The notes beneath the pieces are model-generated. The model searched no databases. It saw only the letters and a program-made list of their open reading frames with translations, and had not been told where the DNA came from. Below are positions 10,073 to 20,503 of a stretch of 64,000 nucleotides of DNA, piece by piece. Every line of letters begins with the position of its first letter. Within the stretch, counting starts at the first letter, position 1. This DNA is from a virus: positions 52,156 through 116,155 of the IMG/VR virus record IMGVR_UViG_3300027763_000034; one strand, given 5' to 3'. Made by a program: the position numbers and the translations under genes.

Positions 10073-10327
10073 ATCTTAATTGTAGCATTTGTATTTTAGT
10101 CGACTGCTATTTCATATTTCTAAAAATGTTAATATATTTTTATTATGTATGATACATACCTAAAAACAAAACGGACATTTGGGATAGACCGCACATATTA
10201 AGCGTGAATGTGTCCTATCTCACAGGATAATTCTAAGATTTATTCCGACACGCCGAGAGATAACTTGATAAATGTCAGTCCCCTAGTGTAGAGTTATCTT
10301 ATAACAACAAACGAAAGGAGTCACACA

Positions 10328-10504
10328 ATGACTCAACTTACAGAAACACTATACAGCACTATTGTGCACGACTTCCATAATGGTGGGGTCAAGTCCTCTT
10401 ATGGACTCAATGCCTATACACGCAAGGCTCTATTGCGTGACCTACTCTCTAGCAAGGCTTGCTATTGCATAGAGTGCGTGTGTGAGGTAACTCACACCGC
10501 ATAA
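10328..10504 (+). CDS. Small early protein (58 aa, Cys-rich C-terminus)
   Basis: Follows promoter 10273 and the ACGAAAGGAG RBS. Confidence 0.65.
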   Translation: MTQLTETLYSTIVHDFHNGGVKSSYGLNAYTRKALLRDLLSSKACYCIECVCEVTHTA

Positions 10505-10594
10505 GGCTCACGCTACGGCGTGTCGCCTTGATAATGTCAGCCCACTAGGCTACAATACTTACTATAACTACTAACGAAAAGGATAGAAAATAAA

Positions 10595-10747
10595 ATGAAG
10601 ATAACTTACTCACTATGGGACGGCGCTCAACTACTAGGCGTGGATTTCACCGCTAATAGCGCAGACGAAATGAATAAGGTCGTAGCAGACCTAATGAAAG
10701 TTTCTCGTAATGTCGTAGCACATATGCGAAAGGTAGAGCAGAACTAA
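10595..10747 (+). CDS. Small early protein (50 aa)
   Basis: Follows promoter 10535 and RBS; stop overlaps the next ATG. Confidence 0.65.
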   Translation: MKITYSLWDGAQLLGVDFTANSADEMNKVVADLMKVSRNVVAHMRKVEQN

Positions 10748-10929
10748 TGTCATACGCATACTCATACCAAACTAACTCAATAGATAAATATAACTCTATT
10801 CAATCAGATGTCGCAGACGCATACGCATACCTTGATGAAGAAGAAACAGAGCAACCCCCTGTTGATGATTTTGATGATGTAGATGATGAAGAATTGGCGC
10901 AAGTATTCGCACTAAGTTGGGATAACTAA
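10747..10929 (+). CDS. Small, highly acidic early protein
   Basis: D/E-rich 60 aa; translationally coupled. Confidence 0.6.
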   Translation: MSYAYSYQTNSIDKYNSIQSDVADAYAYLDEEETEQPPVDDFDDVDDEELAQVFALSWDN

Positions 10930-11175
10930 TGAACTTAGAACTAAACGGATATGGTCTATGCCTAGATAGCGATTGGTTCTATGTCGCACTAGATTGGAAA
11001 CTAATAACACTAACCGCCCTAGTGGTAATCGCCTATAAGATTTATAAGAGAAAGAAGAATAAGTAATGACTACTAATCGCCTACTAACTACCCTAGTGCA
11101 ACTGGGTATTGGTATCCCCGCCCTGCTTATGCTACGCCTTGCTATAAAAGACTTCTTAGAGAATGGACTAGATTA

Positions 11176-11370
11176 ATGAAATCGGAATTAGAGAGAGATT
11201 TAGAAATCAAAGAAAGTTTTATTGATTTACTAAATGATGTTTATCCTACTGTAAAAATCGGTTACTCTACATTCACACCCGCCGAGATTTTGGAGTGTTG
11301 CGATCCTATCGCTTTTTCTATCGGACTAATTGAGCACCAAGATTATTTAGAAGAATTAGAAGAAGAATAA
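11176..11370 (+). CDS. Small acidic early protein
   Basis: Coupled start; ends exactly at a repeat module. Confidence 0.65.
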   Translation: MKSELERDLEIKESFIDLLNDVYPTVKIGYSTFTPAEILECCDPIAFSIGLIEHQDYLEELEEE

Positions 11371-11429
11371 CGGCGTGTCGGCTTGACAATGTCAAGCTGG
11401 CCCGCAAAGGCACGGGGTCGGGCGTGTCG
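11368..11429 (+). repeat. Inter-cassette repeat with GCTTGAC-N3-GTCAAGC palindrome; partial copies at 12953-13000 and 13961-14000
   Basis: TAACGGCGTGTCGGCTTGACAAWGTCAAGCTGGCCCGCAA is shared with 13961; AGCTGGCCCGCAAAGGCACGGGGTCGGGCGTGTC is shared with the ~12967-13000 copy. Confidence 0.9.
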
Positions 11430-11580
11430 TTACGGGCTTTGCATAGAACCCCTAGAATTTTGTGATTTTTATCACATAGGTTGAGCGTCTCAGTATTTGG
11501 ATTTACTGGCTAGTAATTATCTTATGTCAGTGGGTTCGTGTATAATGTCTACTATAACAACAACGAAAGAAGGTCAATTC

Positions 11581-11700
11581 ATGAACCTAGATGAATTCAA
11601 GGCGCATGTTATCGCCACCCGTCAAGCAAGCAAGGCAGAAGCCTTGTCAGTGCTATCTGCTACAATGTCAGTATCAACAACAACGAAAGAAGGAAAGTAA
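11581..11700 (+). CDS. Small early protein (39 aa) whose 3' half is a duplicated promoter cassette
   Basis: RBS at 11561-11573; track start 11497 lies upstream of the promoter. Confidence 0.55.
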   Translation: MNLDEFKAHVIATRQASKAEALSVLSATMSVSTTTKEGK

Positions 11701-11894
11701 TGTCAGCAAATGTTTACAATGTAACCGATTTACTAATCGGAAAAACTTATCGCTCAAATTCCGTAACTGGAGAAATTATCTCAGCGGAAATTCACCCGCA
11801 AGCAATTTGGTATGAAGGCGCAGAAGCGTATCGTGTCCAAATTAGAAAAAATACTGGCGGTTATACTTATCGCAGTTTGGCGGTAAATAAATGA
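11700..11894 (+). CDS. Small beta-rich early protein
   Basis: Own promoter and RBS; shares TG.I..EIHPQA with 14717-14896. Confidence 0.7.
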   Translation: MSANVYNVTDLLIGKTYRSNSVTGEIISAEIHPQAIWYEGAEAYRVQIRKNTGGYTYRSLAVNK

Positions 11895-18129: not shown

Positions 18130-18271
18130 TGTCAGATTACAAAGATGGATTTCAAGACGGGTATAAGTTTGCTCGTGAAGAACTAATGGAAAAGTTAGCA
18201 GAGATTGATATTGCTGACATTGACTCTTGGATCCTTGACCGTCTTTCAGAAATGATTGAGGGTGGCAACCT

Positions 18272-18463
18272 GTGATGGCTGAATGGCTTAAGTGTGATCA
18301 GTGTGCAGCTCAGGCAATGTGGGAAGCAAAGAAAGATGAGATGTCTCTTTATTTTTGTGGACATCATAAAAACAAACAGGGCGAGTCACTTGTGGACTGG
18401 GCCCATGAAATGGTACAATTACTAAACTACGAGCAAGAACAACAACTAGCAAAGGCGGAATAA
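18272..18463 (+). CDS. Small Zn-finger-like protein
   Basis: CDQC...LYFCGHH. Confidence 0.65.
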   Translation: MMAEWLKCDQCAAQAMWEAKKDEMSLYFCGHHKNKQGESLVDWAHEMVQLLNYEQEQQLAKAE

Positions 18464-18464
18464 A

Positions 18465-18833
18465 ATGGGCGACAGAGCAAACTTTGGATTCAGAGATTCC
18501 AAGGAAAATATTGTATTTTTATATGGACATTGGGCAGGGCACCGAATGCTAGAGAATTTAGCGGACGCCGTGCAGATTGCACATCCACGTTGGAATGATG
18601 AAGCATATGCTACACGTATTGCTATCAGCCAAATGATTGGTGATGAGTGGGCTAGCGAAACAGGCTGGGGCATTAGTGTTAATCAATTGGCAGATAATGA
18701 ACACAAGGTCCCAATTATTGATTGGAAAAATAAAACGTTTACGTTAATGGAAGAAGACCTGCAGACTGTAGTATTTAGTACAACCTTGGATGCATTTGTG
18801 GCCAAGTATTGTAGTCAACTAAGTATGGTATAA
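18465..18833 (+). CDS. Hypothetical early protein
   Basis: MGDRAN...LYGHW.G...RW.D..YA.RI pattern. Confidence 0.7.
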   Translation: MGDRANFGFRDSKENIVFLYGHWAGHRMLENLADAVQIAHPRWNDEAYATRIAISQMIGDEWASETGWGISVNQLADNEHKVPIIDWKNKTFTLMEEDLQTVVFSTTLDAFVAKYCSQLSMV

Positions 18834-18839
18834 TTAATC

Positions 18840-18990
18840 TAGGACCTTGGTCCTGGTTTTAATACAGAAATGAAGTGGTGCGTCTAACTAGTCTACGGGC
18901 CAGGCGCTAAGTAAAGCGGTTTATTTCTTTCGTTGGAAATCAGCAGCCATATTCATTAACCCCCCAGCTTGATCTGGGGGGTATTTTTTT
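18840..18990 (+). ncRNA. Candidate ~150-nt structured small RNA with anti-leader loop
   Basis: TGgTATAAT at 18826-18834; multi-stem fold with a cUACGg tetraloop; terminator 18959-18990; no credible ORF. Confidence 0.7.
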
Positions 18991-19153
18991 GCCCACAAAA
19001 GAAATGAGGGTATCATATGTGTTTTACGGATGTCAAGTCAAAACCCTGAAAATCCCAAGCTTTGAGATCATGTGGCATGAATCACATGCATTTGCTCTTC
19101 CATATGTCAGTGGTCTGATATATAATTAGAACATATCAACGAAAGGATATAAA

Positions 19154-19927
19154 ATGCCAAATTGGTGTTACAACACATTAACTATTCAAGGACCTAAGTC
19201 TGAGGTAGATATGATTAAAGATAGATTGAATAAACCTTTTACATTAGCCCAAGAAACATTTGGTATGGGTGATATATCTACTATGGGATTTCCTACTAAG
19301 ATTGAACAGGTATCTTATTCTAATCCCGTTTTTTCTTTTCATAACATCCACTCATATAAAGATGACGGAATTACTGATGAGGAATATGCCTGCCAGCCTA
19401 CACGACTAGGAACAGACACTAGTGCTCCTGATTGGTTTGCTAAAGAAGTTGCACATGCTAAAACTCAGAAGGATTGGTATTCATGGAATACATCTAATTG
19501 GGGAACCAAATGGGATGTTGCTGTCCGTGATGAAGATGAATATCCTGAAACAGAATTACTTGAATATAAGTCAGAAGGTGATGACAACTGGGTTGTATAT
19601 AAATATGAAACTGCTTGGTCACCTGCTGTAACTATCTTAACTAAACTAAGTAATCTTGTTCCGAACTGCCTGCTCACATTAGAGTATGAAGAAGAAACAG
19701 GCTGGGGTGGGGAATATGAGATTGTCCGTGGTGAAGTAAAAGAATTGGCTGAATGGGAAAACCGTTGCTATGCTTGCCAGTCTTTTGATACATTGAGTTA
19801 TTGTGAAGATGACTGTGGAGAATTCTGCTCAGAATGTAATCAAGGCTCTTGGCAGGATGAAAAGGCAATGGCAGAATGTCAGACCCATAGTGTATTATTA
19901 GAGCCTAAAGAAAAGGTGGAGGCATAA
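19154..19927 (+). CDS. DUF1281/YubB ferredoxin-like domain protein
   Basis: MPNWCYN, DWYSWN..NWGTKWD, ETAWSP. Confidence 0.85.
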   Translation: MPNWCYNTLTIQGPKSEVDMIKDRLNKPFTLAQETFGMGDISTMGFPTKIEQVSYSNPVFSFHNIHSYKDDGITDEEYACQPTRLGTDTSAPDWFAKEVAHAKTQKDWYSWNTSNWGTKWDVAVRDEDEYPETELLEYKSEGDDNWVVYKYETAWSPAVTILTKLSNLVPNCLLTLEYEEETGWGGEYEIVRGEVKELAEWENRCYACQSFDTLSYCEDDCGEFCSECNQGSWQDEKAMAECQTHSVLLEPKEKVEA

Positions 19928-20157
19928 TGGCAAGTTTCTTAGAAGATGTAAATCAAATGGTAATTGACGCTGTATATCAAGAGATAGCAGAACAATTACT
20001 AGATGACTGGATTAATAATAATCTAAATGAAGGACAGTATTATGCAGATAAACAATTTGCACAAATGTCAGGAGATAAATTTATCTTTGAGCAATTTAAT
20101 AAGTTCTATGAACTTAAAGAAGGAGACGATGATTATATGGAGTATGACTTATGCTAG
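19927..20157 (+). CDS. Small acidic early protein
   Basis: GGAGG RBS; internal promoter 19877 upstream. Confidence 0.6.
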   Translation: MASFLEDVNQMVIDAVYQEIAEQLLDDWINNNLNEGQYYADKQFAQMSGDKFIFEQFNKFYELKEGDDDYMEYDLC

Positions 20158-20503
20158 GTTATACTGAATCTGATCTAAATGAAATGATTAATGCTGTACA
20201 TGACGCAAAGCTTTTCTATCTTAGGACCCCGTCCGATTTAATGGATAAGTCTTTGCTAACTAATAGTTTGCTAAAGACAAATGATTTCTTGCAAGGACTA
20301 TGGGCGGAGGGTTACTTTGACCACACTAACTAAATCTTCTAAGTTCCTAGAATATATGAAGATACATCTAATTAGTCTTAACCAGGACTTAGAAATGAAT
20401 CCTGAATCTATCAATGTAATTGATATTCCAGGACAAATATATGCAACCGAACATTTGTTGTCAGTGGCTACTGATATAATGAATGAAAACGAGAGGATAT
20501 AAA

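Follow-up and report, generated by a model that had tools for sequence, protein, structure and literature searches.

The question raised by the phage locus described here is which factor, supplied by the host or made by the phage, turns on a block of small genes lying behind an array of repeated promoters. The locus belongs to IMG/VR record IMGVR_UViG_3300027763_000034, a phage genome of 116,155 bp rated complete by CheckV. We analysed its second half (record positions 52,156-116,155; 64,000 nucleotides; guanine-plus-cytosine [GC] content about 37%), hereafter the window, whose own numbering is used throughout. The minus strand holds nearly all genes of the window, among them those for a class II-type ribonucleotide reductase, DnaE, terminase, RecA, a Cas4-type PD-(D/E)XK nuclease, RuvC and MazG. 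The block in question, at 10273..22133, is the sole long plus-strand block in the 116-kb genome and comprises about 40 small open reading frames (ORFs) and a tRNA-Asp gene. We find that 15 sites in this block are real promoters of one class, with TGTCAG at about -28 to -23, a 10-bp spacer that mostly ends in TGn, and TAYAAT as the -10 box. The sequence of the box points to the host activator PafBC as its reader, an assignment to which we give slightly better than even chances.

Architecture and conservation of the TGTCAG promoters

An earlier note on this DNA, made from the letters of the window, had described 15 co-oriented TGTCRG-N10-TANNNT sites with a fixed spacer, each in front of an ORF. 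Our counts bear this out: the window contains 17 matches against 0.90 expected (standard deviation 0.83), 100 shuffles gave at most 3, and a start codon follows each of the 15 sites. Sixteen of the 17 matches lie on the plus strand between 10273 and 20480. The enrichment is limited to the 10-bp spacer, as seen from forward/reverse counts over the whole genome (N10, 17/0; N8, 1/1; N9, 0/2; N11, 1/1; N12, 4/0), other spacers among 6-14 giving 0-4 matches. A scan of the rest of the genome found no further TGTCAG or TGTCRG site of the motif in the 116,155-bp record. The absence of the motif in front of core genes, including recA, was likewise confirmed, the minus-strand genes having ordinary TTGACA-N17-TAtAAT or TGnTATAAT promoters. 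Because the other promoters of the genome are of such ordinary -35/-10 types, the TGTCAG type forms a separate class, and the phage has two promoter classes.

Two of the matches were set aside. The site at 20066 has a TATCTT box, lies within an ORF and is not followed by a ribosome-binding site; it is probably due to chance, and so, it appears, is the match at 62693, antisense within the DnaE gene. We further considered that the box might be the -35 element (CTGACA) of minus-strand promoters and rejected this, as minus-strand -10 boxes are not enriched at the corresponding position (mean 2.8 versus a background of 2.7).

The 15 convincing promoter units are all on the same strand, with a start codon 7-44 nt past the -10 box, and most have a TG extension ahead of TAYAAT. 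In 13 units a GA-rich Shine-Dalgarno sequence, mostly inside a shared AACGAAAGG leader, precedes an ATG located 23-44 nt after the -10 box; one unit is a leaderless candidate, its ATG at 17261 being only 7 nt past the -10 box, and another (ATG 13101) has no clear Shine-Dalgarno sequence. Position 5 of the box is G in a single site of this genome (13052). Judging from this arrangement, the 15 promoters head short transcription units of small genes of the host-takeover type. They are listed below (lengths in amino acids, aa).

10273..10294, plus strand: promoter TGTCAGTCCCCTAGTGTAGAGT; TTGATA at the -35 position, spacer 18; ATG 10328 (58 aa)
10535..10556, plus strand: promoter TGTCAGCCCACTAGGCTACAAT; TTGATA -35-like hexamer, spacer 17; Crp-type palindrome at 10481; ATG 10595 (50 aa)
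11525..11546, plus strand: promoter TGTCAGTGGGTTCGTGTATAAT; ATG 11581
11645..11666, plus strand: promoter TGTCAGTGCTATCTGCTACAAT, within coding sequence; ATG 11700 (64 aa)
12262..12283, plus strand: promoter TGTCAGTGGAAACTGATACAAT; ATG 12328 (48 aa)
13052..13073, plus strand: promoter TGTCGGTCCATTCTGCTATACT, G variant; ATG 13101 of a GP88-family gene (239 aa)
14103..14124, plus strand: promoter TGTCAGTGGCAAATGCTATAAT; ATG 14153 (68 aa)
14668..14689, plus strand: promoter TGTCAGACCCCAATGCTACAAT; ATG 14717 (59 aa)
15007..15028, plus strand: promoter TGTCAGACCCCCCTGCTATACT, with a GC hairpin (14988-15006) directly before it; ATG 15063 (138 aa)
15974..15995, plus strand: promoter TGTCAGTGGCAGATGTTATACT; TAGACA -35-like hexamer; ATG 16025 of a DUF932 gene (334 aa)
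17232..17253, plus strand: promoter TGTCAGTGGGCTCGTGTATAAT; ATG 17261, leaderless candidate, of a conserved 218-aa protein
17412..17433, plus strand: promoter TGTCAGTGGTCAATGCTACAAT, inside the 17261 ORF; Shine-Dalgarno sequence and in-frame ATG 17465 (150-aa short form)
19105..19126, plus strand: promoter TGTCAGTGGTCTGATATATAAT; ATG 19154 of a DUF1281_C gene (257 aa)
19877..19898, plus strand: promoter TGTCAGACCCATAGTGTATTAT, within the end of the preceding gene; ATG 19927 (76 aa)
20459..20480, plus strand: promoter TGTCAGTGGCTACTGATATAAT; ATG 20504 (92 aa)

Alignment of the 15 promoters with their orthologues from 80 related IMG/VR loci yielded 628 pairs; these pairs share descent, so the change rates are non-independent counts, and the contrast between adjoining positions is nonetheless unmistakable. 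Positions 1-4 of the box (TGTC) changed in 0-0.5% of the pairs (G 0%, T 0% and C 0.5% within the GTC triplet), position 6 (G) in 1.6%, and position 5 in 5.4%, mostly by A/G swaps, while in the -10 box the TA, the A and the T did so in 0-0.8%. By comparison, change affected 16-42% of pairs in the central spacer (motif positions 9-14) and 17-29% in the 10 bases upstream of the box, the -35 zone. The length of the spacer is constant while its sequence turns over. Consistent with these rates, the family logo, built from 1,115 distinct instances in 157 loci, reads aaATGTCAG(T/A)(G/C)(C/G)..TGnTAtAAT, with at most 0.15 bit at the -35 position, A preferred to G at position 5 (93%) and the G at -14 retained in 80% of instances; the motif occurs in the 157 related loci 2,280 times in the forward and 10 times in the reverse direction. 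These data show that the box and its distance to the -10 element, and not the -35 zone, are under strong purifying selection, and the TGTCAG box is very probably a functional promoter element. A scan of viral contigs for ATGTCAG-N8-TGNTAYAAT returned, among the matches listed (117 loci), single chance hits and no contig with three or more motifs.

The picture needs one correction at the distal end of the plus-strand block. Most of the block is under the 15 promoters described above, and the distal genes (20.9-22.1 kb) are under three canonical promoters of the form TTGAC(n)-17/18-TAtAAT, with a TG extension and without TGTCAG. The block also contains two types of site known from host regulation. 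Palindromes of the Crp/GlxR type (TGTGA-N6-TCACA) number 4 in the block versus 0.10 expected, and they start 49-64 bp upstream of the boxes at 10535, 11525, 14103 and 15974; they would be centred at roughly -70 to -85 of the predicted transcription start, like class I activator sites. Perfect DnaA boxes TTATCCACA number 7 versus 0.75 expected, six of them as pairs in three intergenic spots of the block. Both types of site would fit a region wired to host regulators.

20908-20937, plus strand: canonical promoter
21472-21500, plus strand: canonical promoter
21714-21742, plus strand: canonical promoter
10481-10496, 11461-11476, 14054-14069, 15920-15935: Crp/GlxR-type palindromes
14013, 14034, 15877, 15900 (minus strand), 22198, 22210, 5305: DnaA boxes

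Relation to PafBC promoters and to the host lineage

The published PafBC motif is tGTCgg(N10)tA(N3)T, with its box at -23 to -28 and no -35 consensus; the GTC triplet, read by R46 and R50 of PafB, is nearly invariant across actinobacteria, and PafBC slots between region 4 of SigA and the DNA, a mode of action called "sigma adaptation" (PMC8635444). In vitro, PafBC joins promoter-bound polymerase only when single-stranded DNA (ssDNA) is bound (PMC11804915). The earlier note had equated the phage motif with the PafBC consensus, and the two indeed match in sequence, spacing, fixed bases and lack of a selected -35 element, so that membership of the sites in the PafBC/RecA-NDp promoter class is, as far as form goes, well supported. 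Shared with the described PafBC (RecA-NDp, recA P1-type) promoters are TGTCRG-N10-TANNNT, the invariant GTC, the actinobacterial setting, a box at about -26 (for the phage, placed by reference to the -10 box only), the absence of a selected -35 and a -10 box of housekeeping type (PMC8635444, PMC11804915). The phage sites differ in forming an array of 15 in 10 kb before small unknown genes rather than repair genes, in favoring A at position 5, and in having near-consensus, TG-extended -10 boxes and some -35-like hexamers. An older form of the consensus, tTGTCRgtg-8nt-TAnnnT, could not be confirmed in the papers.

Large lytic phages such as SPO1 and T5 possess early host-takeover arrays in which many small genes each stand behind a strong promoter. 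The present block resembles these arrays in its dense packing of tiny ORFs on one strand, its repeated strong promoters and its shared leaders; theirs, however, are plain host sigma promoters, whereas here each promoter contains the box of a host activator. T4 middle promoters, with a MotA box at -30 and a -10 element served by AsiA/MotA "sigma appropriation", are alike in that a box at -30/-26 takes the place of the -35 element, its reader being an adaptor that sits between the DNA and sigma region 4, a comparison drawn in PMC8635444. T4 makes its own adaptors, whereas our phage has no AsiA or MotA domain and its box is that of a host activator. The SiwR promoter of M. smegmatis also places a -26 element, recognized by an ssDNA-sensing WYL regulator, beside the -10 box, but what SiwR recognizes is not TGTCRG: its 19-bp site forms an imperfect palindrome and contains a GGA triplet (PMC10693628). 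In the full-text literature we found no link between phages and RecA-NDp/PafBC promoters, and the sole mention of phages in the PafBC papers is the T4 analogy.

The genome itself tells what kind of host to expect. It carries a single whiB gene, and the literature uses WhiB as a marker for actinobacteria and the phages that infect them (PMC10202952, PMC10914622). The best cultured matches of this WhiB are in the Streptomyces phages BillNye, Braelyn and kin (Stanwilliamsviridae), to which DnaE is 56-58% identical. With WhiB among its genes and Streptomyces phages as its closest cultured relatives, the phage can be assigned to an actinobacterial host, probably one of low GC content. The family is very common in metagenomes, the DUF932 protein retrieving 294 IMG/VR stretches and one block protein 3,369 protein clusters, and related phage genomes measure 104 to 116 kb.

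38019-38396, minus strand: phage whiB gene
59535-60539, minus strand: phage recA gene (Pfam RecA, 1.2e-36)

A WhiB homologue search and an Atlas search gave only phage-family proteins and no clue to the host. A genome search with the phage WhiB returned the metagenome-assembled genome "Bacteroidia bacterium EUL_060" and one from Oscillospiraceae. The former (L094, JBBALJ010000051.1; G001 contigs C49 and C51) contains two contigs with phage-type whiB genes, one encoding a protein 90% identical to the WhiB of the phage; most likely, these are phage contigs mis-binned by composition.

To learn whether promoters of this type occur in bacteria of the expected kind, we searched metagenome contigs for recA genes in which the motif, with A or G accepted at position 5, precedes the IE..(F/Y)GKG..M segment encoded in low-GC codons. 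The scan gave 21 matches, including typical actinobacterial recA genes on contigs of 44-45% GC; since the motif was part of the query, the result establishes the existence of such promoters and says nothing of their frequency. Three contigs (L098, L099 and L104) have TGTCAGTTAGGGCAGTTATCTT, with 32 nt from the -10 box to the start codon, and a fourth (L103) has TGTCAGTGCAGTTACCTACGGT; matches of high GC content include a Mycobacterium-like recA with TGTCGGTGG. The RecA of L098 is recorded as "Actinomycetota bacterium" and that of L103 as "actinobacterium acAMD-5", a group that we take to belong to the order Nanopelagicales. AcAMD-5 is described as a family of Actinobacteriota with a genome of about 1.3 Mb, listed beside Nanopelagicaceae (PMC8443644). 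By sequence, then, low-GC planktonic actinobacteria have a recA promoter of the TGTCAG-N10-TANNNT type, in which position 5 is A, the base favored by the phage. A search of the literature on PafBC in Nanopelagicales found nothing relevant. The recA leaders at L098 5547-5601 (…CACGAACAAGGAGA…ATG) and L103 312-370 (…AAACGACCAAGGAG…ATG) resemble the shared phage leader (…AACGAAAGGA…ATG) even outside the ribosome-binding site, a likeness that could be due to chance.

What reads the box

Our current working hypothesis is that the host housekeeping RNA polymerase, with SigA, would bind the -10 box while host PafBC would read TGTCAG. PafBC is a heterodimer of the helix-turn-helix (HTH)-WYL proteins PafB and PafC that is activated by ssDNA and inserts itself between sigma region 4 and the DNA; the phage would in this way tie its plus-strand block to the ssDNA alarm of the host. 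The reading of the earlier note, in which the host damage response serves as the early activator of the phage, is thereby supported in part. The alarm might be raised by DNA entry, by recombination-dependent replication involving the RecA, Cas4-type nuclease and RuvC of the phage, or by breakdown of host DNA. PafBC would boost or time these promoters rather than act as an absolute switch, and the strong -10 boxes probably confer PafBC-independent activity as well.

Several observations weigh against a role of PafBC or, at least, against strict dependence on it. The phage -10 boxes are near-consensus extended -10 elements (TGnTAYAAT), 3 of the 15 sites have a -35 hexamer matching at 5 of 6 positions with a spacer of 17-18, and hexamers matching at 4 or more of 6 positions are present in 8 of 15 sites versus 18% of background; promoters of this make are independent of activators in many bacteria, and those of the phage may therefore fire without one. 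The near-optimal -10 boxes of the phage contrast with the poor ones at the host recA sites (TATCTT, TACGGT), which are of the kind seen in activator-dependent promoters. In addition, PafBC needs ssDNA, which makes it an awkward choice for the very first genes of infection. The "early" expression of the block is itself deduced from its architecture, and the presence of phage RecA, nuclease and RuvC suggests that ssDNA is plentiful after the start of replication. The nearest cultured relatives infect Streptomyces, a genus reported to use RecA-NDp promoters (PMC5087735), and yet lack the motif. Finally, a phage-made adaptor could be hidden among the roughly 40 small ORFs of the block.

Such an adaptor would follow the logic of T4 MotA/AsiA, a small domainless protein redirecting SigA polymerase to TGTCAG-N10, and we regard it as unlikely. 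It might be borne by the virion, or it might be the first protein made, in which case its gene would use the canonical promoters (20.9-21.7 kb), minus-strand promoters or the leftmost two of the TGTCAG promoters, those with TTGATA. The genome does offer canonical promoters that could serve an earlier class, the promoters at 10273 and 10535 have -35 hexamers matching at 5 of 6 positions, most block ORFs are without a family (only 3 of about 40 have one: GP88, DUF932 and DUF1281_C), and the motif is confined to this phage lineage, BillNye and Braelyn having 0 and 2 matches in 127 and 131 kb. However, the search for a phage WYL or sigma activator that the earlier note had called for came back empty: the 116-kb genome has no WYL domain and no Sigma70_r2 match, and neither AsiA (PF09010) nor the MotA C-terminal domain (MotCF, PF09158) gives a match at E <= 1. 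We detected only two faint sigma-r4-like HTH stretches, both below the cut-off. One is in the very conserved 17261-17917 protein (E = 0.02), which could be counted in favor of an adaptor. The other is a 48-aa protein at 55359-55505 that is, with WhiB, the only recognizable DNA-binding protein of the phage. WhiB and the 48-aa protein are both also present in BillNye and Braelyn; because these relatives lack the motif, neither protein can be tied to it, and both are unlikely box readers. A convincing lineage-specific HTH protein was not found, and a phage-made reader would have had to converge on the exact PafBC box, its spacing and its conserved GTC. The same box is present at recA of the host lineage, and all units of the block that precede 20.9 kb, the first included, already have it.

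Somewhat less probable still is that the promoters are constitutive extended -10 promoters of SigA, with TGTCAG as the operator of a repressor or shut-off factor or as the site of another host regulator of the -26 type. TGnTAYAAT is near the optimum, the G at -14 is largely kept, -35-like hexamers occur at some sites, and other actinobacterial WYL regulators are active at -26 on different sequences, as SiwR is on a palindrome containing GGA (PMC10693628). But operators need no base-exact spacing to the -10 box, and here N10 alone is found and is kept despite the turnover of the spacer; moreover, the box lacks symmetry and is identical to that of PafBC, and we found no candidate repressor. A sink for PafBC, by which at least 15 strong PafBC-polymerase sites per phage copy would draw the activator off the host damage regulon and blunt repair or defence, is very improbable. 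The replicating genome would present many high-quality copies, and stress reportedly does not raise the level of PafBC (PMC6789036), but each box lies in exact promoter register before a gene, which suits expression and would make titration a by-product at most.

We return to PafBC as the reader and consider what would follow. The broadest form of the proposal, which we judge as apt to be wrong as right, is that large lytic phages that infect uncultured low-GC actinobacteria, and that form a widespread family, rebuilt nearly their whole takeover programme on host PafBC, with the ssDNA alarm igniting or boosting expression and the Crp-type and DnaA-type sites as extra inputs. If so, these phages would be the first known case of a virus exploiting an ssDNA sensor of the WYL-domain type, and they would illustrate a route of promoter takeover that needs no phage-made adaptor. 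PafBC and WYL regulators have been studied as sensors of damage and of phages, and a phage that uses such a sensor as a switch would reverse this picture. The family would also supply more than 1,000 natural variants of PafBC promoters; the variation among orthologous promoters resembles a mutational scan of the -26 element, with TGTC and the sixth G fixed, the fifth position A or G, and the length of the spacer fixed. The proposal further predicts a PafBC regulon in freshwater actinobacteria of the Nanopelagicales type, which are abundant and hard to grow.

Other elements of the block and of the genome

The ORF at 17231-17917 (plus strand) is under two TGTCAG promoters, of which the one at 17232 would give 218 aa and the one at 17412 would give 150 aa; long and short forms of the 17261-17917 protein are therefore likely. 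This protein has 3,369 homologue clusters, no family and a Cys-rich N terminus (CDPDEC...CPC). Its AlphaFold model was poor (mean predicted local distance difference test score of 44) and was not used.

A possible small RNA is located at 18813-18990 on the plus strand, behind an extended -10 promoter without TGTCAG (TGGTATAAT, ending at 18834). It has a strong terminator with a U tract at 18959-18982 and a fold z score of -2.6, and within it, at 18927-18935, is the sole plus-strand copy of CTTTCGTTG, a sequence complementary to the CAACGAAAG leader shared by the mRNAs of the block. It could be an anti-leader RNA with a role in shut-off.

Two repeats lie upstream of some promoters of the block. 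The first, of 40 nt, is found at 11368-11407 and 13961-14000 and in part at 10513-10552, and it includes a TGTCGG that no -10 box follows, along with the palindrome GCTTGACAATGTCAAGC. The second, of 42 nt, is found at 11395-11436 and 12967-13008.

Elsewhere in the window, which also contains 8 tRNA genes, there are many 2-oxoglutarate (2OG)-Fe(II) oxygenases. Paralogues of the 2OG-Fe(II) oxygenase/JmjC type are unusually numerous at 24778-29402, 53844-54470 and 58549-59382 and in the genome upstream of the window. Beside them are a glutathione peroxidase, an APS-kinase-like protein, a carbamoyltransferase, a sulfotransferase, a luciferase-like monooxygenase and a DUF6065 protein. Finally, the minus-strand gene at 39412-42102 encodes an 896-aa protein with a Pro-rich, extensin-like stretch and lies in the only part of the window with a raised GC content (45%).

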